A program made the position numbers and the translations under genes. The notes under the pieces were generated by a model, which worked only from the letters and a program-made list of their open reading frames with translations, did no database searches and had not been told where the DNA came from. Source: Escherichia coli (GTDB lineage Bacteria > Pseudomonadota > Gammaproteobacteria > Enterobacterales > Enterobacteriaceae). Taken from it: a stretch of DNA of 64,000 bases. The DNA lies in the NCBI RefSeq assembly GCF_016026235.1, contig NZ_CP065613.1, one strand, 5' to 3'. Of the stretch, positions 1,621 to 49,150 are shown one piece after another; position 1 is the stretch's first letter, and each line of letters starts with the position of its first letter.

Positions 1621-1642
1621 CCCTTACGAAAAGTACGGCATT

Positions 1643-1665
1643 GATAATCATTTTCAATATCATTT
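1643..1665 (+). promoter_or_regulatory. Fur box in sodA promoter
   Basis: gataatcattttcaatatcattt resembles the GATAATGATAATCATTATC Fur consensus; tataat -10 follows at 1674-1679. Confidence 0.6.
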
Positions 1666-1735
1666 AATTAACTATAATGAACCAACTGCTTACGCGGCAT
1701 TAACAATCGGCCGCCCGACAATACTGGAGATGAAT

Positions 1736-2356
1736 ATGAGCTATACCCTGCCATCCCTGCCGTATGCTTACGATGCCCTGGAACCGCACTTCGATAAGCA
1801 GACCATGGAAATCCACCACACCAAACACCATCAGACCTACGTCAACAACGCCAACGCGGCGTTGGAAAGCCTGCCAGAATTTGCCAACCTGCCGGTTGAA
1901 GAGCTGATCACCAAACTGGACCAGCTGCCAGCAGACAAGAAAACCGTACTGCGCAACAACGCTGGCGGTCACGCTAACCACAGCCTGTTCTGGAAAGGTC
2001 TGAAAAAAGGCACCACCCTGCAGGGTGACCTGAAAGCGGCTATCGAACGTGATTTCGGTTCCGTAGATAACTTCAAAGCAGAATTTGAGAAAGCGGCAGC
2101 TTCCCGCTTTGGTTCCGGCTGGGCATGGCTGGTGCTGAAAGGCGATAAACTGGCGGTGGTTTCTACTGCTAACCAGGACTCCCCGCTGATGGGTGAAGCT
2201 ATTTCTGGCGCATCCGGCTTCCCGATTCTGGGCCTGGATGTGTGGGAACATGCTTACTACCTGAAATTCCAGAACCGCCGCCCGGACTACATCAAAGAGT
2301 TCTGGAACGTGGTGAACTGGGACGAAGCAGCGGCACGTTTCGCGGCGAAAAAATAA
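1736..2356 (+). CDS. sodA: Manganese superoxide dismutase
   Basis: ORF track 1730..2356; start moved to ATG 1736 ([20 protein letters not shown]...) giving 206 aa; Mn/Fe-SOD signature throughout. Confidence 0.96.
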
Positions 2357-2412
2357 TCATTTGCCGTCTGCTGCAATGAGGCGTTTACGCCGCATATCAG
2401 CTTAAAAAATGA

Positions 2413-2440
2413 ACCATCGCCAATGGCGGTGGTTTTTTTT
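2413..2440 (+). terminator. sodA intrinsic terminator
   Basis: Hairpin accatcgcc-aat-ggcggtggt followed by an 8-T run. Confidence 0.75.
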
Positions 2441-2477
2441 GTGATCAATTTCAAAATAAAAACAATGATCCGATAAA

Positions 2478-2497
2478 AATAAAACAGCGTTTCAATT
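2478..2497 (+). promoter_or_regulatory. Putative KdgR operator upstream of kdgT
   Basis: aataaaacagcgtttcaatt is a near-palindrome resembling the KdgR box; kdgT is a known KdgR regulon member. Confidence 0.45.
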
Positions 2498-2616
2498 GAT
2501 GTGGTTTTGATCACTTTTATTGATTAAATGAATGTCTATCTTCGTTTCCATCAACACTGATGCTCCATTGAGGAATTACGCATCAGCCCTTAAAAATATG
2601 CCGACAGGTGATGGAA

Positions 2617-3600
2617 ATGCAGATAAAACGCTCGATTGAGAAAATCCCGGGGGGGATGATGCTCGTCCCGCTATTCCTTGGCGCACTGTGCCACACCTTC
2701 TCGCCGAGGGCGGGGAAATATTTTGGATCATTCACCAACGGGATGATTACCGGTACGGTGCCCATTCTGGCGGTGTGGTTTTTTTGCATGGGGGCGTCAA
2801 TAAAATTAAGCGCGACGGGAACGGTACTGCGTAAATCCGGTACGCTGGTGGTAACTAAAATTGCCGTCGCGTGGGTGGTTGCGGCAATTGCCTCGCGTAT
2901 TATTCCGGAACATGGTGTTGAAGTTGGATTCTTTGCCGGACTTTCAACGCTGGCGCTGGTGGCGGCGATGGATATGACCAACGGCGGACTTTACGCTTCC
3001 ATCATGCAGCAGTACGGCACAAAAGAAGAAGCTGGGGCATTTGTGTTGATGTCGTTGGAGTCCGGGCCGCTCATGACGATGATTATTCTGGGCACTGCAG
3101 GGATTGCCTCGTTTGAACCGCATGTTTTCGTCGGCGCAGTATTACCGTTCCTGGTGGGCTTTGCCCTTGGGAACCTTGACCCTGAATTACGAGAATTTTT
3201 CAGCAAAGCGGTGCAGACGCTGATTCCATTCTTTGCCTTCGCGCTGGGCAATACCATTGATTTGACTGTGATTGCCCAGACTGGTTTGCTGGGGATCCTG
3301 TTGGGTGTGGCAGTAATTATCGTGACCGGTATTCCGTTGATTATCGCCGATAAATTGATTGGCGGTGGCGATGGCACTGCCGGAATTGCCGCTTCCAGTT
3401 CCGCAGGGGCCGCGGTAGCGACACCTGTGCTGATTGCAGAAATGGTGCCTGCGTTTAAACCGATGGCTCCGGCAGCAACTTCGCTGGTAGCGACGGCAGT
3501 CATTGTGACTTCGATTCTGGTGCCAATTCTTACCTCTATCTGGTCACGTAAAGTCAAAGCCAGAGCGGCGAAAATCGAAATTTTAGGTACGGTGAAATAA
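2617..3600 (+). CDS. kdgT: 2-keto-3-deoxygluconate permease
   Basis: ORF track 2608..3600; start set at ATG 2617 ([13 protein letters not shown]...) giving 327 aa; multi-TM transporter. Confidence 0.92.
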
Positions 3601-3748
3601 ACCTGCTTCCTTAATCCCCACCGCCGGATGAACTAACGTTCGTCCGGTTTGCTATTGAGTTCCTGCCTGGATACTTACCGCGAAAACAGCACGCCTGACA
3701 TAAAATAAATATGGTCTAATGGGGAAATTTCTCGTGGAGAGGGAACAG

Positions 3749-4423
3749 ATGCGATATCCGGTTGATGTATACACAGGCAAGATTCAGGCTTATCCCGAAG
3801 GCAAACCCAGCGCAATTGCCAAAATCCAGGTTGATGGTGAGTTGATGCTGACGGAGCTGGGGCTGGAAGGTGACGAGCAGGCGGAGAAAAAGGTTCACGG
3901 CGGACCAGACAGAGCGCTGTGTCATTATCCTCGTGAGCATTATCTCTACTGGGCGCGGGAATTTCCGGAACAGGCGGAGTTGTTTGTGGCGCCTGCGTTT
4001 GGCGAAAATCTCTCAACCGACGGTCTGACGGAAAGTAATGTTTATATGGGCGATATTTTCCGCTGGGGAGAGGCATTAATTCAGGTCAGCCAGCCGCGCT
4101 CGCCTTGCTATAAACTCAATTACCATTTTGATATCAGCGATATAGCGCAGTTGATGCAAAACACGGGTAAAGTGGGATGGTTGTATAGCGTGATAGCGCC
4201 AGGGAAAGTGTCTGCGGACGCGCCGCTGGAGTTGGTTTCCCGTGTCAGCGATGTGACCGTGCAGGAGGCTGCCGCCATCGCATGGCATATGCCGTTTGAT
4301 GACGATCAGTATCACCGTTTACTCTCCGCCGCCGGGTTATCGAAAAGCTGGACGCGGACGATGCAAAAGCGCCGACTGAGCGGCAAGATCGAAGATTTTT
4401 CCCGCCGGTTGTGGGGAAAATAA
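3749..4423 (+). CDS. yiiM: MOSC-domain protein YiiM
   Basis: ORF track 3719..4423; start set at ATG 3749 (MRYPVDVYTGK...) with a GGAG-rich RBS upstream; 224 aa. Confidence 0.9.
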   Translation: MRYPVDVYTGKIQAYPEGKPSAIAKIQVDGELMLTELGLEGDEQAEKKVHGGPDRALCHYPREHYLYWAREFPEQAELFVAPAFGENLSTDGLTESNVYMGDIFRWGEALIQVSQPRSPCYKLNYHFDISDIAQLMQNTGKVGWLYSVIAPGKVSADAPLELVSRVSDVTVQEAAAIAWHMPFDDDQYHRLLSAAGLSKSWTRTMQKRRLSGKIEDFSRRLWGK

Positions 4424-4433
4424 CCCTCGGAGT

Positions 4434-4517
4434 GTAGGCCTGATAAGACGCTATCAGCGTCGCATCAGGCATCCTGCTCAAATGCCGGATGCGGCGTAAA
4501 CGCCTTATCCTGCCTAC
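4434..4517. repeat. BIME: two inverted REP elements
   Basis: gtaggcctgataagacgc...cgcatcaggc and gccggatgcggcgtaaacgccttatcc...ctac. Confidence 0.85.
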
Positions 4518-4528
4518 AAATGCGGAGT

Positions 4529-5902
4529 TTAACTCCGCTTATACAGCGGCAACCAAATCACCAGCCGTAAACCGCCCAGCGGGCTGTCTTCTGCTTTAAC
4601 CCAGCCACGATGCTGCTGAATGGCGGTTTCAACAATCGCCAGCCCCAATCCTGTACCGCCAGATTCACGATCGCGTGCTTCATCGGTCCGATAGAACGGA
4701 CGGAAAATCTGTTCGCGATCTTCCGGGCTAACGCCAGGACCATCGTCGTCCACCGTAATGGTGATACCGTCTTTATCTACCGCAAAGCCCACTTCAATCT
4801 TCGTATGGGAATAACGCAGAGCATTACGAACAATGTTTTCCAGCGCACTTTCCAGGGCGTTCGGATTGCCGTACAGCGGCCACGGCCCAGGCGGGAAGTT
4901 AACTGTCAACGACTTGCCCATTTGCTCGGCTTCGAACGCCGCGTTATCCAGCACTTCACTCCACAACTGGTTGGCTTTGATGGTTTCGCTAACCAGCGCG
5001 TTTTTTTGCTGATTACGTGACATCACCAACAGATCGTTGATCATGCTGTCCAGACGTTGCGCTTCGGTTTCAATACGCTCCAGTTCCTTGCTTTCACCGC
5101 TACGACGGCGCAGTAACGCCGTACCCAGTTGCAGACGCGTCAGCGGGGTGCGCAGCTCGTGAGAGATATCAGAAAGCAGACGCTGCTGAGAGGTCATCAT
5201 GCGCTCCAGCGCGGTGACCATCTGGTTAAAACTGGCACCTGCGGCAAGGAATTCCTGTGGCCCCGCTTCCAGTTCCGGGTGCTGGCGTAAGTTTCCCTGG
5301 GCAACTTCATCGGCAGCGTTTTTCAGCTTACGCGCCGGTTTTGCCAGACTCCAGGCCAACCACAACAGCAGCGGCGTACTGACCAACATGGTGACAATCA
5401 GCAGTAATAGCGGGCGGTCAAACAGTAAGTTAATGAAATCGGATTGAGAACTGCTGGCCGGACGAATCAGATAAAGTTGGTAATTATCTTCGCCATCACG
5501 CACGGAGAACGGACCGACCAGTTCCACGCGGCCATACTTTTTCTTCTGCGGATGATCGGCGTTATCGGCCTGACCAATAAAGTTACGAATGATCTGCATT
5601 TCGCTGCGTTCAGCGCCGATCACGCGGCCTTCGGTGGTCACCAATAACAAACGCTGTCCTGGCGGTGCCCACTTATCAATCGCCCGGAACAGACGCCGCC
5701 ACCACATTAAATCGTTGGGCGGATCGTTCGCCAGCTCCGCTTCAACATGCTGCTCAATCATCAGCCCCTGACGCTGTTCGCTATCCAGAAGCTCGGTCAT
5801 CTGGCGTGAATCGAGCTTGGGTAACATCAAAACCAACATCAACACCAGCGCCAGCGTCAGCCAGAAGATGGCGAAGATGCGCGCGGTTAAGCTGCCTATC
5901 AT
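4529..5902 (-). CDS. cpxA: Envelope-stress sensor histidine kinase CpxA
   Basis: 457-aa ORF; TM segments, HAMP and histidine kinase motifs; overlaps cpxR by 4 bp. Confidence 0.96.
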   Translation of the reverse strand: MIGSLTARIFAIFWLTLALVLMLVLMLPKLDSRQMTELLDSEQRQGLMIEQHVEAELANDPPNDLMWWRRLFRAIDKWAPPGQRLLLVTTEGRVIGAERSEMQIIRNFIGQADNADHPQKKKYGRVELVGPFSVRDGEDNYQLYLIRPASSSQSDFINLLFDRPLLLLIVTMLVSTPLLLWLAWSLAKPARKLKNAADEVAQGNLRQHPELEAGPQEFLAAGASFNQMVTALERMMTSQQRLLSDISHELRTPLTRLQLGTALLRRRSGESKELERIETEAQRLDSMINDLLVMSRNQQKNALVSETIKANQLWSEVLDNAAFEAEQMGKSLTVNFPPGPWPLYGNPNALESALENIVRNALRYSHTKIEVGFAVDKDGITITVDDDGPGVSPEDREQIFRPFYRTDEARDRESGGTGLGLAIVETAIQQHRGWVKAEDSPLGGLRLVIWLPLYKRS

Positions 5903-30354: not shown

Positions 30355-30411
30355 AGTTAAACGTCCATGTATAAAAAGCGGTGGGTCGCAGACAACGTGC
30401 TCGTTGTTTAT

Positions 30412-30508
30412 GCCGGATGCGGCGTGAACGCCTTATCCGGCCTACAAGTTCGTGCAAATTCAATAAATTGCAATATGACGTAGGCCTGATAAGCGTAGCG
30501 CATCAGGC
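30412..30508. repeat. BIME: two inverted REP elements with AT-rich spacer
   Basis: gccggatgcggcgtgaacgccttatccggcctac ... gtaggcctgataagcgtagcgcatcaggc. Confidence 0.85.
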
Positions 30509-30537
30509 GATTCCACTCCGCGCCGCTCATTTCCGCT

Positions 30538-35966: not shown

Positions 35967-36179
35967 ATAGTGTGGCTTTTGTGAAAATCACACAGTGATC
36001 ACAAATTTTAAACAGAGCACAAAATGCTGCCTCGAAATGAGGGCGGGAAAATAAGGTTATCAGCCTTGTTTTCTCCCTCATTACTTGAAGGATATGAACC
36101 TAAAACCCTTTTTTATAAAGCATTTGTCCGAATTCGGACATAATCAAAAAGCTTAATTACGATCAATTTGATCTACATC

Positions 36180-40117: not shown

Positions 40118-40248
40118 CTGGTTCGTCCGTGAAAATAAGAGTCACAGATTCGACCTTCCGGGCTAACGATTGTTCTGTGGAGAAAATGTCCAGAAGCGGA
40201 TAAAAAACTCCTGAACAACGTGGGAGTTTCAGATTACTGGCACAGAGT

Positions 40249-40346
40249 GCCGGATGCGGAGTGAACGCCTTATCCGGCCTACAAAAGCACGCAAATTCAA
40301 TATATTGCAGAGATTGCGTAGGCCTGATAAGCGTAGCGCATCAGGC
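40249..40346. repeat. BIME: two inverted REP elements with AT-rich spacer
   Basis: gccggatgcggagtgaacgccttatccggcctac ... gtaggcctgataagcgtagcgcatcaggc; near-copy of the BIME at 30412-30508. Confidence 0.85.
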
Positions 40347-40391
40347 AATTTTGCGTTCAAACTCCCGGACAAGCCGGGAGTTTGGAGTAGG

Positions 40392-41495
40392 TTATTCCCA
40401 CTCTTGCAGGAAACGCTGACCGTACTGGTCAGCTACCAGCAGTGCGGCGTAAACCTGATCTGGCGTCGCGCCGCCAGGCATGTTGTGGATGGTTTCACCT
40501 TCTGCACAAGATGCTTTTGCAACAATGCGCATTTTCGCCGGGACATCTTCTTTAATATCCAGTTGAGCGAGAGTTATTGGCAAACCTACCGCATGGCTAA
40601 GTGCAGCTACGGTTTCGATTTCCTCCACCGGCGCGTTTTCCAGTACCAGCTGCGTCAGCGTACCAAATGCCACTTTTTCACCGTGATAATAGTGATGCGC
40701 GTCCGGGATAGCGGTCAGGCCGTTATGCACCGCGTGAGCCGCCGCCAGCCCGCCGCTTTCAAAACCAACGCCGCTCAAATAGGTGTTCGCTTCAATCACG
40801 CGCTCCAGCGCCGGGGTTACTACATGCTGTTCGGCGGCAAGCATCGCTTTTTCGCCTTCTTCCAGCAGGGTGTTGTAGCACAGTTCAGCCAGTGCCAGCG
40901 CCGCCTGGGTGCACTTGCCGCCCGCCATGGTGGTCGCGCCGCTACGAGAGCAAGCACGCGCTTCAAACCAGGTTGCCAGCGCATCGCCGATACCCGCTGC
41001 TAACAGACGTGCAGGTGCGCCCGCGACGATTTTGGTGTCGACAATGACCATATTCGGGTTATTTGGCAACAGCAGATAGCGGTCAAACTCACCCTCATCG
41101 GTGTAGATAACAGACAATGCGCTGCACGGTGCATCGGTAGAGGCGATAGTCGGTGCGATCGCTACCGGAACACCCATGAAATGTGCCAGTGCTTTGGCAG
41201 TATCGAGGGTTTTTCCGCCACCGATACCGAGAATTGCGCCACACTGCGCAGTCTCCGCGATGCCACGCAGACGGTCGATCTCATTTTGCGAACATTCACC
41301 GCCAAACGGCGCAATTTCTACTACCAGTCCAGCATCTTTAAAGCTTTTCTCGACAGTGGATTGAGCAAAACCTAAAACAAATTTGTCACCTACCACTAAC
41401 CAGCGTTCTGCCAGCGGCTTCAGGTATTCGCCCAGACGATTAATCACATCAGCGCCCTGGATGTATTTACCCGGTGATTGAATAATGCGGTCCAT
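40392..41495 (-). CDS. gldA: Glycerol dehydrogenase
   Basis: ORF track 40392..41534; start at ATG 41495 ([28 protein letters not shown]...) giving 367 aa. Confidence 0.95.
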
Positions 41496-42179: not shown

Positions 42180-44681
42180 TTACAGTTCCAGTTCATGTTG
42201 CAGCAGGCTGGCGATAGCGTCGGCAGAGGCGGCGTTAACCAGCGCGTTACGGAATTCTTCGTGCATGATGCGACGAGCGAGGCGCGAGAAAATGCGCATA
42301 TGCTGATCGCCCGCAGCGTGTTTGTTCAGGGTTAACATAATGATGAATTGCGCTTCATCATCGCCCCAGCGCACTGGCGCTTGCAGGCGCGCTACACTGA
42401 TGGTGGATTGCTCAATGTGTTCTGATTTGCTGTGTGGAATGGCAAAACTAAAGCCCAGACCGGTAGAGAAAACGGCCTCGCGCGCCCACAAGTCGGCTTC
42501 CAGTTTACGCGGATAGCGGCAGCGCCCTGCCAGCAGCAGGTTATCGGTCATGCCTTTGAGCACTTCTTCTTTGCTGCGCCAGTCGCTTTCCAGCGTGATG
42601 CACTCGGCGGTGACCAGTGGTGCGTCCTGTTGGGTCATGCGGAATTGCGCCAGCAGGTGTTCCACTTCCAGCGAAGTACGGCAGGCCATTGCCTGGTTGA
42701 GCAACTTGCGGCACTCACGGCTATCAAGTTGCGCCATCCGCGCTTTCGCCGCCGGAATTGATGGTGCGCTCATGCTGAGTTCATCCAGCCCTAAGCCGAC
42801 CAGCAACGGCAGCACGGAACCTTTCGCTCCCAGCTCACCGCACAGACCAATCCATTTGCCTTGGCGATGCACCGCTTGCACGGCGTAATCGAGCGCCCGC
42901 AAGAATGCCGGATTCAGGCTGTTGTAGTGACGAGTAACCTTAGCGTTATCGCGATCCACTGCCAGCAGATATTGCGTCAGGTCATTACTACCAATACTAA
43001 AGAAATCAATCTCTTCGCAGCATTGATCGATGATGAACATCACCGACGGCACTTCCAGCATGATGCCGAGCTGGATCTTCTCATCAAACGGAATGTGTTC
43101 GTTACGTAGTTGCTGTTTGGCTTCCGCCAGTTTTTCTTTCACCCATAAGATCTCTTCCATTGAAGAGATCATCGGGATCATGATTTTCAGGCTGCCGTGA
43201 GCGGAGGCACGGAGGATCGACCGTAGTTGTGTGGTAAATAACGACGCGTACTCTTCATAAATACGCACAGCGCGATAACCGAGGAACGGGTTAGCTTCTG
43301 CCGGAATGTTCAGATAATCAACGGGTTTGTCGCCGCCAATGTCCATAGTGCGCACAATAATGCTGCGTCCGTTGGCAGACTCCAGCGCCTGACAAAAAAT
43401 GTTGTACAGCTCGCTTTCGCCCGGTGCACTGGTGCGATCCATATAGAGCATTTCAGTGCGGAACAAACCAACGCCTTCCGCACCGTTGCCGAATGCGGCC
43501 TGCGCTTCCACGGAGTGAGCGATGTTAGCGGCAATTTCAATGCGGATACCGTCAGCGGTACGGGCTTGTTGGGTCAGCCAGACACGCTGTTGCTCACGCA
43601 GGGCGTCCTGTACGCGGGCTTCTTGCTGATAATAACGAGCTACGGCTTCTCCTGGCTCAACCACAATCGCCCCGGCGTTGCCGTCGATATAAATCGTTTG
43701 ATGCTGCCACGGAGTAAGGGCATCAATATCTACACCAACCAGTGTCGGAATGTTGAACGAACGGGCAAGAATTACGGTATGTGAGGTGGTGCCGCCACTT
43801 TTCAGTAACAGACCTTTGAGGTGATTTTTATCCAGTTCGAGGAACTGGCTGGGGGTTAGTTCATCAGCCATACAAATGGCGGGCTGCGTCAGTTTGCCCG
43901 GTGCCGGGAAGCGTTGCTCACCGTAGATTTGCTGAAGCAGCTGGAAGCAGACATCGCGTACGTCCAGGGCACGTTCTTGCAGGTAGCTGCTGCTGGAACG
44001 GGAAAACTCTTCACAAAAGTGATTCGCACTGGCGACAATCGCTTCGGCGCAGCTTAATCCGGCGCTGACGCCTGCCAGTAAATGTTCGTGCAGGGAAGTA
44101 TCGCCAGCCAGGGATCGGTGCGCTTCCAGAATCGCGCTGGTGGCACCGTCGCTATCCAGCAGACGAAACTCAATGTTTTTCAGTACCAGCGTCAGGCCGT
44201 TTTCCAGTGCGGATTGCTCGGCGTCAACGTCTTTGGCTGCGGGAAGATTACCCAGCGCATTGAGATCTAAAGAAGAGATCGGCGTCAGAATGCCACCTGC
44301 GCTACCGCTGCACACGGTGCGGGCGCGAATAATGCGCGGATTCAAATTAGTGAGTGAAACCGGTAGCGGCTCCAGTTCGTCAGATTTTACTTCCGCCAGC
44401 GGTGCGTCGCAGTGGGGAAATTCATCGCGCAGCCATTGGCTTAAACGCTGGTGCGCTTCCTGTTCGTCGGCCCCGGAAATCAGTAACTGGCAGTTATCGC
44501 CCGCCAGCGTGTCGGTGCCAATCAGCGCAAGGGCGCTTTTGGCGTTGCCCTTGCGGTCAGTGCGCAGGTTATGCCACTCAATTTGTGATGAAAAAGTATT
44601 ACACAGCGTTTCAACGTGGCTTGCCGGACGTGCATGTACGCCGTTAGGTAGCTCACAAATAAATTCCACAATCAGGGCCAT
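42180..44681 (-). CDS. ptsA: Multiphosphoryl transfer protein (EI-HPr-EIIA fusion) of the frw PTS
   Basis: 833-aa ORF with HPr-like N-terminus and Enzyme I-like PEP-utilising domain. Confidence 0.92.
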
Positions 44682-44989
44682 TGCCTCTCTCCCGGTACGG
44701 TTTTCTGTTTACAGGATAAGAGCGCACGGCAACGGCCTGCCATGTGACAAATCTGCCAAAAGCTGGACAAATGTAATGTAACCGTCAATTTGCGACGCGT
44801 CTCACAAGACGCCGTTTTGCGGCATGCTTCCGGATTATCGCAAGTTATGAGGCGGATCGCATTTTTGTACTGATATTACAAAAGTCCAGTAAATGGCCTT
44901 TTTATCCACTGTTTGCTCCGCCTGCGATTGCCTATTGTTTCCTCCATCAAAAATATGGACATGGGCTTTCGCAAGCCCGGGAGCAGCTT

Positions 44990-46069
44990 ATGAATGAGTT
45001 GGTGCAGATCCTGAAAAATACCCGTCAGCATTTAATGACGGGCGTTTCACACATGATTCCCTTCGTGGTATCGGGCGGTATTTTGCTGGCGGTTTCCGTC
45101 ATGTTGTATGGCAAAGGCGCAGTGCCGGATGCCGTCGCCGATCCGAATCTGAAAAAACTGTTTGATATCGGCGTTGCAGGTTTGACGCTGATGGTGCCTT
45201 TCCTCGCCGCTTACATCGGTTACTCCATTGCAGAGCGTTCTGCGCTGGCCCCGTGCGCTATCGGTGCCTGGGTTGGTAACAGCTTTGGTGCGGGCTTCTT
45301 TGGTGCGCTGATCGCCGGGATTATTGGCGGCATCGTGGTGCATTACCTGAAGAAAATTCCGGTGCATAAAGTTCTGCGCTCGGTGATGCCTATCTTCATC
45401 ATTCCTATCATCGGCACACTGATTACCGCAGGCATCATGATGTGGGGCTTGGGCGAGCCTGTAGGGGCGTTGACCAACAGCCTGACTCAGTGGCTTCAGG
45501 GGATGCAGCAGGGCAGCATTGTTATGCTGGCGGTGATCATGGGTCTGATGCTGGCGTTCGATATGGGCGGTCCGGTTAACAAAGTGGCCTATGCCTTCAT
45601 GCTGATTTGCGTTGCTCAGGGTGTTTATACCGTGGTGGCCATTGCTGCCGTGGGTATTTGTATCCCGCCGCTGGGGATGGGGCTGGCGACGCTGATTGGT
45701 CGTAAAAATTTCTCCGCAGAAGAGCGCGAAACCGGTAAAGCGGCGCTGGTGATGGGGTGCGTTGGGGTTACTGAAGGGGCGATTCCTTTCGCCGCTGCCG
45801 ATCCGTTACGTGTAATTCCTTCCATCATGGTTGGTTCAGTTTGTGGTGCAGTAACTGCGGCGCTGGTCGGTGCGCAGTGCTATGCAGGCTGGGGTGGTCT
45901 GATTGTGCTGCCGGTGGTTGAAGGTAAGTTGGGTTATATCGCAGCAGTGGCTGTCGGGGCGGTTGTGACGGCAGTCTGCGTGAACGTGCTGAAAAGTCTG
46001 GCGCGTAAAAATGGGTCTTCGACTGATGAGAAGGAAGACGACCTGGATCTGGATTTTGAAATTAATTAA
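44990..46069 (+). CDS. frwC: Fructose-like PTS EIIC component
   Basis: 359-aa polytopic ORF. Confidence 0.92.
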   Translation: MNELVQILKNTRQHLMTGVSHMIPFVVSGGILLAVSVMLYGKGAVPDAVADPNLKKLFDIGVAGLTLMVPFLAAYIGYSIAERSALAPCAIGAWVGNSFGAGFFGALIAGIIGGIVVHYLKKIPVHKVLRSVMPIFIIPIIGTLITAGIMMWGLGEPVGALTNSLTQWLQGMQQGSIVMLAVIMGLMLAFDMGGPVNKVAYAFMLICVAQGVYTVVAIAAVGICIPPLGMGLATLIGRKNFSAEERETGKAALVMGCVGVTEGAIPFAAADPLRVIPSIMVGSVCGAVTAALVGAQCYAGWGGLIVLPVVEGKLGYIAAVAVGAVVTAVCVNVLKSLARKNGSSTDEKEDDLDLDFEIN

Positions 46070-46404: not shown

Positions 46405-46454
46405 GTTCTTCTCCCGCTCGCAAGGGCGGGTTCGCTTTCCCACAGGAGTTCCTC

Positions 46455-48306
46455 ATGACGAATCGTATCTCTCGCCTCAAAACTGCACTGTTTGCCAATA
46501 CCCGTGAAATCTCGCTGGAGCGGGCGCTGCTTTATACCGCCAGCCATCGGCAAACCGAAGGCGAACCGGTGATATTGCGCCGGGCGAAAGCAACAGCGTA
46601 TATCCTTGAACATGTTGAAATTTCGATTCGTGATGAAGAACTGATTGCCGGTAACCGCACCGTAAAACCGCGCGCCGGGATTATGTCGCCGGAAATGGAC
46701 CCTTACTGGCTGCTGAAAGAGCTGGATCAATTCCCGACGCGTCCGCAGGACCGCTTTGCTATCAGCGAAGAAGATAAACGTATCTACCGTGAAGAGTTGT
46801 TCCCGTACTGGGAAAAACGTTCGATGAAAGATTTCATCAACGGGCAGATGACAGATGAAGTAAAAGCCGCGACCAACACGCAGATTTTCAGCATCAACCA
46901 GACGGATAAAGGCCAGGGGCACATTATTATTGATTACCCACGCCTGTTGAATCACGGTCTGGGTGAGCTGGTGGCACAGATGCAGCAACATTGTCAGCAA
47001 CAGCCGGAGAATCACTTTTATCAGGCCGCGTTGTTACTGCTGGAAGCCTCGCAGAAACACATTTTGCGTTACGCCGAACTGGCGGAAACGATGGCGGCAA
47101 ACTGCACAGATGCCCAGCGTCGCGAAGAACTGCTGACTATTGCGGAGATCTCTCGCCATAACGCCGAACATAAGCCGCAGACGTTCTGGCAGGCGTGCCA
47201 GTTATTCTGGTACATGAACATCATTCTGCAATACGAATCCAACGCCAGTTCGCTATCGCTGGGGCGCTTCGACCAGTATATGTTGCCGTTCTATCAGGCA
47301 TCATTAACCCAGGGCGAAGATCCGGCGTTCCTGAAAGAACTGCTCGAATCTTTATGGGTGAAATGCAACGACATCGTGCTGTTGCGCTCCACCAGCAGCG
47401 CGCGTTATTTCGCAGGTTTCCCGACCGGCTATACCGCACTGCTCGGCGGGTTAACCGAGAACGGACGTAGCGCGGTGAACGTGCTTTCGTTCCTTTGCCT
47501 TGATTATCAGCGATTGTCTGGAAAAAGGTCGCGATATTACCGATGGCGGCGCGCGTTATAACTTCTCCGGCGTACAGGGGATCGGTATCGCCAACCTGAG
47601 CGATTCTCTCCATGCGTTGAAAGGGATGGTTTTTGAGCAACAGCGTTTAAGTTTTGACGAATTGCTGTCGGTATTAAAAGCCAACTTTGCAACGCCAGAA
47701 GGCGAAAAAGTCCGTGCTCGCTTAATTAACCGCTTCGAGAAATACGGTAACGATATCGACGAGGTGGATAACATCAGCGCCGAACTGTTACGCCACTACT
47801 GCAAAGAAGTGGAAAAATACCAGAACCCGCGCGGCGGTTACTTCACGCCGGGATCGTATACCGTTTCTGCTCACGTCCCGTTGGGATCGGTGGTTGGCGC
47901 GACGCCAGACGGTCGTTTTGCCGGGGAACAACTGGCAGACGGCGGCTTGTCACCTATGCTGGGCCAGGACGCACAAGGGCCAACAGCGGTACTGAAGTCA
48001 GTCAGTAAGCTCGATAATACGCTGCTGTCTAACGGTACGTTGCTGAACGTGAAATTCACTCCGGCGACCCTGGAAGGTGAAGCGGGATTACGCAAACTGG
48101 CCGACTTCTTACGGGCGTTTACCCAGCTTAAGTTGCAGCATATTCAGTTTAACGTGGTGAACGCCGACACGTTGCGGGAAGCGCAACAGCGCCCACAAGA
48201 TTATGCCGGGCTGGTGGTGCGCGTTGCCGGATACAGCGCCTTCTTTGTCGAACTGTCGAAGGAGATCCAGGATGACATCATCCGCCGGACAGCGCATCAG
48301 CTGTAA
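46455..48306 (+). pseudogene. pflD: pflD (glycyl-radical formate acetyltransferase 2 homologue) disrupted by an internal deletion and frameshift
   Basis: N-terminal 350 aa read in frame 0 to ...NVLSFLCLD, then switch to frame +1 at about 47505 (ISDCLEKGRD...) through the glycyl-radical motif RVAGYSAFF to the normal stop; total 1852 bp versus about 2298 bp expected for the 765-aa protein. Confidence 0.75.
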
Positions 48307-49150
48307 CGTTGTGGAAACGCGCCGCGATGATGTGGCGCGCATTTTCAACATTCAGCGTTATTCACTGAATGACGGCGAGGGCATTCGTACGGTGGTCTTT
48401 TTTAAAGGCTGTCCGCATCTTTGCCCGTGGTGTGCTAATCCGGAGTCGATCTCCGGCAAAATCCAGACGGTACGCAGAGAGGCGAAATGTCTGCACTGTG
48501 CGAAATGTTTGCGTGATGCGGATGAATGCCCCTCCGGGGCGTTTGAACGGATTGGTCGCGATATCAGCCTTGACGCGCTGGAACGGGAAGTGATGAAAGA
48601 TGACATTTTCTTTCGCACGTCCGGCGGCGGCGTCACGCTTTCTGGCGGCGAAGTGTTAATGCAGGCGGAGTTTGCTACCCGTTTTTTACAGCGACTGCGG
48701 CTGTGGGATGTCTCATGTGCCATTGAAACTGCCGGAGACGCACCAGCCAGCAAGCTGTTACCGCTGGCGAAATTGTGCGATGAAGTGTTGTTCGATTTAA
48801 AAATTATGGACGCGACTCAGGCGCGGGATGTGGTGAAGATGAACCTGCCACGCGTACTGGAGAACCTGCGTTTGCTGGTGAGTGAGGGTGTCAACGTGAT
48901 CCCGCGTTTGCCGCTGATCCCCGGTTTCACACTCAGCCGGGAGAATATGCAGCAGGCGCTGGACGTGCTGATCCCGCTGAATATCAGGCAGATCCATCTG
49001 TTGCCGTTTCATCAGTACGGCGAGCCGAAATACCGCCTGCTGGGGAAAACATGGTCGATGAAAGAGGTGCCTGCGCCGTCGTCAGCCGATGTGACAACGA
49101 TGCGCGAAATGGCAGAACGGGCCGGATTTCAGGTTACCGTGGGAGGTTAA
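48272..49150 (+). CDS. pflC: Glycyl-radical enzyme activating protein (radical SAM)
   Basis: ORF track 48203..49150; start at ATG 48272 (MTSSAGQRISCNVVETRR...) giving 292 aa; CxxxCxxC cluster motif; overlaps pflD 3' end by 35 bp. Confidence 0.93.
   Translation: MTSSAGQRISCNVVETRRDDVARIFNIQRYSLNDGEGIRTVVFFKGCPHLCPWCANPESISGKIQTVRREAKCLHCAKCLRDADECPSGAFERIGRDISLDALEREVMKDDIFFRTSGGGVTLSGGEVLMQAEFATRFLQRLRLWDVSCAIETAGDAPASKLLPLAKLCDEVLFDLKIMDATQARDVVKMNLPRVLENLRLLVSEGVNVIPRLPLIPGFTLSRENMQQALDVLIPLNIRQIHLLPFHQYGEPKYRLLGKTWSMKEVPAPSSADVTTMREMAERAGFQVTVGG

Follow-up and report, generated by a model that had tools for sequence, protein, structure and literature searches.

In a 64-kb window of Escherichia coli DNA (i.e., the whole stretch that was analysed), the glycyl-radical enzyme gene pflD has lost an internal segment of 446 bp, and the remaining sequence is split over two reading frames. 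This is very probably a genuine and vertically inherited null allele, whose carriers would have lost the step that PflD catalyses in the anaerobic breakdown of 1,5-anhydromannitol. The allele turned up in a rare clade, in which the dedicated activase gene pflC and the surrounding PTS genes are still encoded in full. All coordinates are positions within this window, and gene nucleotides and residue numbers are those of intact pflD. The pflD of FDAARGOS_943 (NZ_CP065615.1), the nearest complete genome, served as reference, and the K-12 MG1655 sequence was fetched as well. The locus and its surroundings are composed as follows:

40392–41495, minus strand: gldA, glycerol/1,2-propanediol dehydrogenase; intact, 367 aa
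41506–42168, minus strand: fsaB, fructose-6-phosphate aldolase family; intact, 220 aa, with P80L relative to FDAARGOS_943
42180–44681, minus strand: ptsA/frwA (ptsP in RefSeq), multidomain HPr-EI-EIIA PTS protein; intact, 833 aa
44990–46069, plus strand: frwC, PTS EIIC; intact, 359 aa
46084–46404, plus strand: frwB, PTS EIIB; intact, 106 aa, with K36E relative to FDAARGOS_943 and K-12
46455–47503, plus strand: pflD 5′ remnant (gene nt 1–1049, codons 1–350) in its native frame; the product matches PF02901 (PFL-like)
47503/47504, no strand: deletion junction, with residues 351–499 missing; blunt, microhomology of 0
47504–47561, plus strand: out-of-frame tail of the 5′ ORF, YQRLSGKRSRYYRWRRAL; 18 residues, premature TAA at 47559–47561
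47504–48306, plus strand: pflD 3′ remnant (residues 500–765) in a different frame; native stop kept
48272–49150, plus strand: pflC, dedicated radical-SAM activase; intact, 292 aa
49152–49493, plus strand: frwD, second PTS EIIB; intact, 113 aa
49480–50331, minus strand: yijO, adjacent AraC-family regulator; intact, 283 aa

Structure and origin of the pflD deletion

The intact pflD of FDAARGOS_943 is a CDS of 2298 bp encoding 765 aa (3156..5453 of the fetched reference locus, L001). When compared to it base by base, the window gene was found to be without exactly 446 bp (gene nt 1050–1495), and the 1852 nt still present consist of the first 1049 nt and the last 803 nt of the reference gene, each without a mismatch, so that everything that was kept is 100% identical to the reference. 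This identity, together with the conserved frwCB-pflDC-frwD gene order, establishes the locus as the orthologue of pflD. The initial annotation, made from the letters only, had read pflD as a pseudogene with a frameshift and about 446 bp deleted from its interior, next to intact pflC and frw genes, and the gap relative to FDAARGOS_943 matches that reading to the base pair.

Instead of a continuous ORF of ca. 765 aa spanning both PF02901 and PF01228, the window holds two overlapping plus-strand ORFs (46455..47561, 368 aa; and 47500..48306, 268 aa), with 149 residues absent from between them. The first contributes 350 native residues, ending in ...NVLSFLCLD, before running into the 18-residue tail, and residue mapping agrees here with the boundary and the TAA at 47561 as they were originally read. 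The second was likewise correctly described as a C-terminal piece in another frame that carries the RVAGYS motif and whose native end reaches 35 nt into pflC (annotated start at 48272). Together the pieces amount to 616 aa (350 + 266) of the 765 aa of the intact protein, a length that the initial annotation had given and that FDAARGOS_943 confirms.

Intact PflD consists of a PFL-like domain (PF02901, residues 1–626) and a Gly_radical domain (PF01228, residues 645–747). The 268-aa product of the 3′ remnant matches both PF02901 and PF01228, and its Gly_radical domain holds RVAGYS with Gly741; the RVxG glycyl-radical motif is therefore present at the sequence level, yet out of frame with the 5′ part. 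The catalytic loop G418-C419-V420-E421, on the other hand, falls inside the deleted residues 351–499, and a search for GCVE in both pflD fragments found none left. In this family, the substrate is attacked by a thiyl radical on the loop Cys, and the finger loop lies centrally in a ten-stranded barrel, facing the Gly loop. The deleted block aligns with the corresponding region in other glycyl radical enzymes of solved structure, and with residues 368–524 in the B12-independent glycerol dehydratase from Clostridium butyricum (1r8w). This dehydratase is the closest long-characterised structural relative (E = 6e-195), and its Cys433/Glu435 loop (..IIGC433VE435..) aligns with Cys419/Glu421 of PflD within the deleted block; it differs from PflD in substrate and organism, and was used only to locate the catalytic loop.

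The absence of an active-site loop had originally been argued from the lack of either a Cys-Cys pair or a GCVE-type loop. The latter argument stands, GCVE (residues 418–421) being deleted, but the former is no criterion, as intact PflD has no Cys-Cys pair itself and instead has a single-Cys GCVE loop, as in dehydratase-type glycyl radical enzymes. The Cys-Cys pair is a trait of PflB. Since 149 barrel residues and the Cys loop are gone, and the frame is shifted in addition, there should be no route to an active enzyme. Judged by its missing active site, the window allele is predicted to give no active PflD, and the loss of catalytic residues combined with the frameshift indicates that window pflD would be without a functional product.

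With regard to the origin of the deletion, flanking direct repeats at the junction, which the initial annotation had proposed to look for, were not found. A repeat-mediated event (i.e., slipped-strand or RecA-independent short-homology deletion) was rejected on these grounds, the breakpoints having no direct repeat and a microhomology of 0. The nearest word common to both breakpoints is TTATCA, offset by 3 nt from one of them; it is no better than chance, given that among 5000 randomly placed breakpoint pairs with equal spacing, 327 (6.5%) equalled or beat this match. The longest inverted word at the breakpoints measures 4 nt. An IS- or transposon-mediated deletion was rejected as well, since native pflD is joined to native pflD without an inserted base or IS remnant. 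Because there is neither a repeat nor a foreign base at the junction, we infer, by exclusion, that illegitimate, microhomology-independent joining removed codons 351–499 and shifted the frame. The mechanism is thereby defined negatively, as homology-independent joining, for which double-strand break repair or a topoisomerase-type error would be candidate routes.

Carriers of the allele and other pflD null alleles

The pflD locus was matched in 5,417 of the 5,426 complete E. coli genomes, and the 446-bp segment is whole in 5,397 of them. Among the matches listed, each came in two pieces, covering 2547 bp in the subject versus 2101 bp in the query. pflD is thus a near-core gene that is normally maintained, and it is intact in the closest relative of the window. 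The window lineage itself is poorly represented among the complete genomes: over positions 36000–58000, FDAARGOS_943 alone (1/5,426) reaches at least 99% identity, and the next best genome ca. 98.8%. Across the entire 64 kb, window and FDAARGOS_943 differ by 26 scattered SNPs (14 synonymous, 7 nonsynonymous, and 5 intergenic; mostly transitions) and one indel, and no difference other than the pflD deletion disrupts any gene. The decay had been called recent in the initial annotation, and in a relative sense this holds: the nearest intact relative is only those 26 SNPs away, the remnants have no secondary mutations, the neighbouring genes are intact, and the clade is shallow.

Carriers of the allele were found only via exact-protein look-ups with the 368-aa product and the 268-aa fragment. 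In the complete genomes, a 121-nt junction query was uninformative, as both halves were rejoined as one place, and a 40-nt query centred on the junction was therefore used. This junction 40-mer occurs in none of the 5,426 complete E. coli genomes, and the junction had no match in the GTDB species representatives or in the JGI metagenome contigs. Nevertheless, the same junction is present in at least 19–20 contigs from independent assemblies and sequencing runs, among which are the NCBI draft GCA_002466675.1 (its contig being common to 6 samples), the Logan assemblies of SRR8186592, SRR30892832, SRR11606891, and ERR9828666, and a 4.56-Mb contig in which the fragment has been deposited as STM02817.1 ("formate acetyltransferase 2"). 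The allele is rare.

Every fetched carrier locus (L005–L011) has the identical junction 40-mer, and the carriers fall into at least three flanking haplotypes. Position 42861, for example, is T in the window and in GCA_002466675.1, and C in SRR11606891, ERR9828666, and FDAARGOS_943; ERR9828666 additionally has private SNPs at 44920 and 45945. Because of these haplotypes, the carriers are not copies of one assembly, and their independence is indicated by differing accessions and haplotypes. A junction common to so many independent accessions marks the lesion as real and heritable. The deletion postdates the split from the FDAARGOS_943 lineage, and has been kept since then while a rare clade diversified to some extent.

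pflD has been disrupted elsewhere in the species too. A Q356* allele (CAA>TAA) was found in 45 blocks of the collection and in many samples, a metagenome scaffold among them (L012–L014), a Q286* allele (CAG>TAG) is a further null allele in public assemblies (L015–L017), and a truncated PflD with a non-native tail (P0002) looks like the product of a frameshift near residue 316. All three lie in divergent pflD backgrounds (47–55 nt differences), with pflC and frwD called intact. Moreover, strain 2017.03.02CC (NZ_AP027769.1, 4424547–4432381; human faeces, Viet Nam) has a deletion running from ptsA to pflD (locus 1623–4241, L018), by which a 5′-truncated ptsA is fused to a 5′-truncated pflD and frwC and frwB are gone; RefSeq marks both the ptsA and the pflD remnant as pseudogenes. 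Like the window allele, these alleles (Q286*, Q356*, the probable frameshift, and the ptsA′-pflD′ deletion) are lineage-restricted, keep pflC and frwD, and occur in multiple public assemblies. The window allele differs from them in being an internal 446-bp deletion, neither a nonsense point mutation nor a loss of several genes, and in lying in a different background.

The existence of at least four further independent pflD-disrupting alleles, and the persistence of the 446-bp allele through the diversification of its clade, could be taken to mean that pflD loss was selected, for instance when a niche made it advantageous to be spared an unfavourable flux or the expense of making an oxygen-labile enzyme; several independent null alleles next to intact flanking genes would be explained in this way. 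We consider such adaptive loss unlikely, given that the segment is intact in 5,397 of the 5,426 complete genomes, that a few null alleles are expected by drift in any non-essential gene when hundreds of thousands of E. coli have been sequenced, and that the substitutions are too few for any test of selection. Somewhat more doubtful still is the stronger proposal that several E. coli lineages converged on selected loss of PflD with retention of the PTS, the activase, and the downstream genes. If it were true, it would point to a cost that the radical pathway carries in certain niches, or to a remaining role of the Frw PTS and PflC without PflD, and 1,5-anhydromannitol-6-phosphate might build up in carriers and make them sensitive to the sugar analogue. 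As it is, a handful of pflD null alleles is no more than drift would be expected to produce in a dispensable gene and provides no evidence of selection, and the loss may be neutral.

An assembly artefact had been named in the initial annotation as the alternative to decay, in which case the genome would have an intact pflD and the gap would be a collapse or misjoin in a single assembly. The intact pflD of the closest complete genome, and the absence of the junction from the complete genomes, the GTDB representatives, and the JGI metagenome contigs, would fit with this. However, it would also require that one NCBI draft, a 4.56-Mb contig, and at least four SRA/ENA runs, each with its own assembly, arrived at the same error in at least three flanking haplotypes, at breakpoints without any repeat that could make an assembler collapse, and in a window that otherwise shows one homopolymer difference in 64 kb. 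An artefact is accordingly highly improbable. Poor assembly quality as its cause was ruled out by that single homopolymer indel and by the SNPs being mostly transitions.

That the two ORFs remain functional, either as a split two-chain enzyme or with the 3′ ORF as a GrcA-like "spare part" activated by PflC, has a negligible chance of being correct: the 3′ ORF does hold a complete Gly_radical domain (PF01228), the activase is intact, and a glycyl-radical domain that stands alone is known from E. coli GrcA/YfiD, but the 149 absent residues include the thiyl-radical Cys419 and Glu421, no combination of fragments rebuilds the active site, the 3′ frame has no Shine-Dalgarno sequence at TTG 47500 (where the mechanical ORF starts) or at the next in-frame starts, and the genome region offers no intact PflD core for rescue. 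Reinitiation at the 3′ ORF was rejected as a candidate for the same want of a Shine-Dalgarno sequence at TTG 47500, and at ATG 47626 in the same frame the sequence AAGGG abuts the start codon directly.

The remaining operon and the predicted phenotype

The genes flanking the null allele are well preserved. pflC is full length, as initially stated, and PflC has no amino-acid differences from FDAARGOS_943; the only amino-acid changes in the neighbouring proteins relative to that genome are FsaB P80L (window 41930) and FrwB K36E (window 46189). The latter is common to all carrier loci covering the site (L005–L011), and the SNP at 45945 mentioned above corresponds to a FrwC A319V substitution private to ERR9828666 (L006/L011). 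The substitutions in the cluster are too few to separate relaxed constraint from chance.

Both genes downstream of the lesion have their own Shine-Dalgarno sequences (AAGGAG with a 7-nt spacing for pflC, and GGGAGG for frwD). Between the premature stop at 47561 and pflC, 710 nt are now untranslated. In principle, such a gap may invite Rho-dependent polarity on pflC and frwD; its C>G bubble reaches a maximum of +7 versus an operon-wide maximum of 13, i.e., there is no marked C-over-G bias. A promoter scan of the operon returned nothing above shuffled expectation. Between frwB and pflD (window 46413–46430), a G+C-rich hairpin is followed by a T-rich tail (CCCGCTCGCAAGGGCGGG TTCGCTTTCC), which looks like an intra-operon terminator or attenuator and is present in the intact reference too.

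The affected gene is the orthologue of E. coli PflD (b3951; PDB 8yjo, "Probable dehydratase PflD"). The gldA-fsaB-ptsA / frwC-frwB-pflD-pflC-frwD / yijO synteny is identical, and the K-12 locus shows ca. 98.7% identity to the window across the region; compared to this gene, the window allele is a pseudogene that is without nt 1050–1495 (including the GCVE loop) and is frameshifted. Crystal structures have been deposited for PflD (8yjo) and for YbiW (8id7 and 8yjn), an E. coli paralogue of the same family and reaction type with full-length homology to PflD (E = 1e-142), although its locus lies outside the window and it acts on a different epimer (1,5-anhydroglucitol-6-phosphate).

The reaction reported for PflD is the cleavage of 1,5-anhydromannitol-6-phosphate, which gives 1-deoxyfructose-6-phosphate (Ma et al., JACS 2024, 146:26187, as cited in PMC12441222). 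According to section 5.1 of PMC12441222, 1,5-anhydroglucitol and 1,5-anhydromannitol are phosphorylated via the PTS in E. coli, and the same source describes the cleavage of the respective 6-phosphates by YbiW and PflD, with 1-deoxyfructose-6-phosphate as product in both cases, as a glycyl-radical, strictly anaerobic reaction. The label "cryptic", which the initial annotation had attached to the operon, is outdated in light of the substrate reported in 2024 (as given in PMC12441222) and of structure 8yjo.

In the carrier clade, fermentation of 1,5-anhydromannitol via PflD is predicted to have been lost. Uptake and phosphorylation may have been kept, because frwC and frwB are located upstream of the lesion. 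The lineage still encodes the Frw/PtsA system, the PflC activase, fsaB, and gldA. By gene neighbourhood, FsaB and GldA are candidates for the downstream steps (aldol cleavage, followed by reduction of hydroxyacetone).

The window allele is an ordinary lineage-specific pseudogene of a known, characterised gene, and not a new kind of system. Lineage-specific pseudogenes with small deletions are commonplace in E. coli, and with the gene, enzyme family, and structure already known, and the substrate since 2024, the importance of the allele is mainly one of strain-level annotation: pipelines split pflD into two "formate acetyltransferase" CDSs (e.g., STM02817.1), and a pseudogene flag is warranted. 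Beyond annotation, the carrier clade constitutes a natural knockout for testing the 1,5-anhydromannitol pathway reported in 2024, and its members can conveniently be recognised by the unique junction 40-mer.

Finally, two minor features of the window lie outside the operon. In the katG-metF spacer (window 36145–36150), a run of A5 versus A6 distinguishes the window from FDAARGOS_943, which is either a real polymorphism or a homopolymer error in either assembly. Furthermore, a direct repeat of ca. 103 bp with 88% identity occurs at window 30411–30512 (between metJ and yiiX) and 40248–40350 (between yijF and gldA); both copies are intergenic, and the repeat probably belongs to one of the families of intergenic repeats in E. 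coli.
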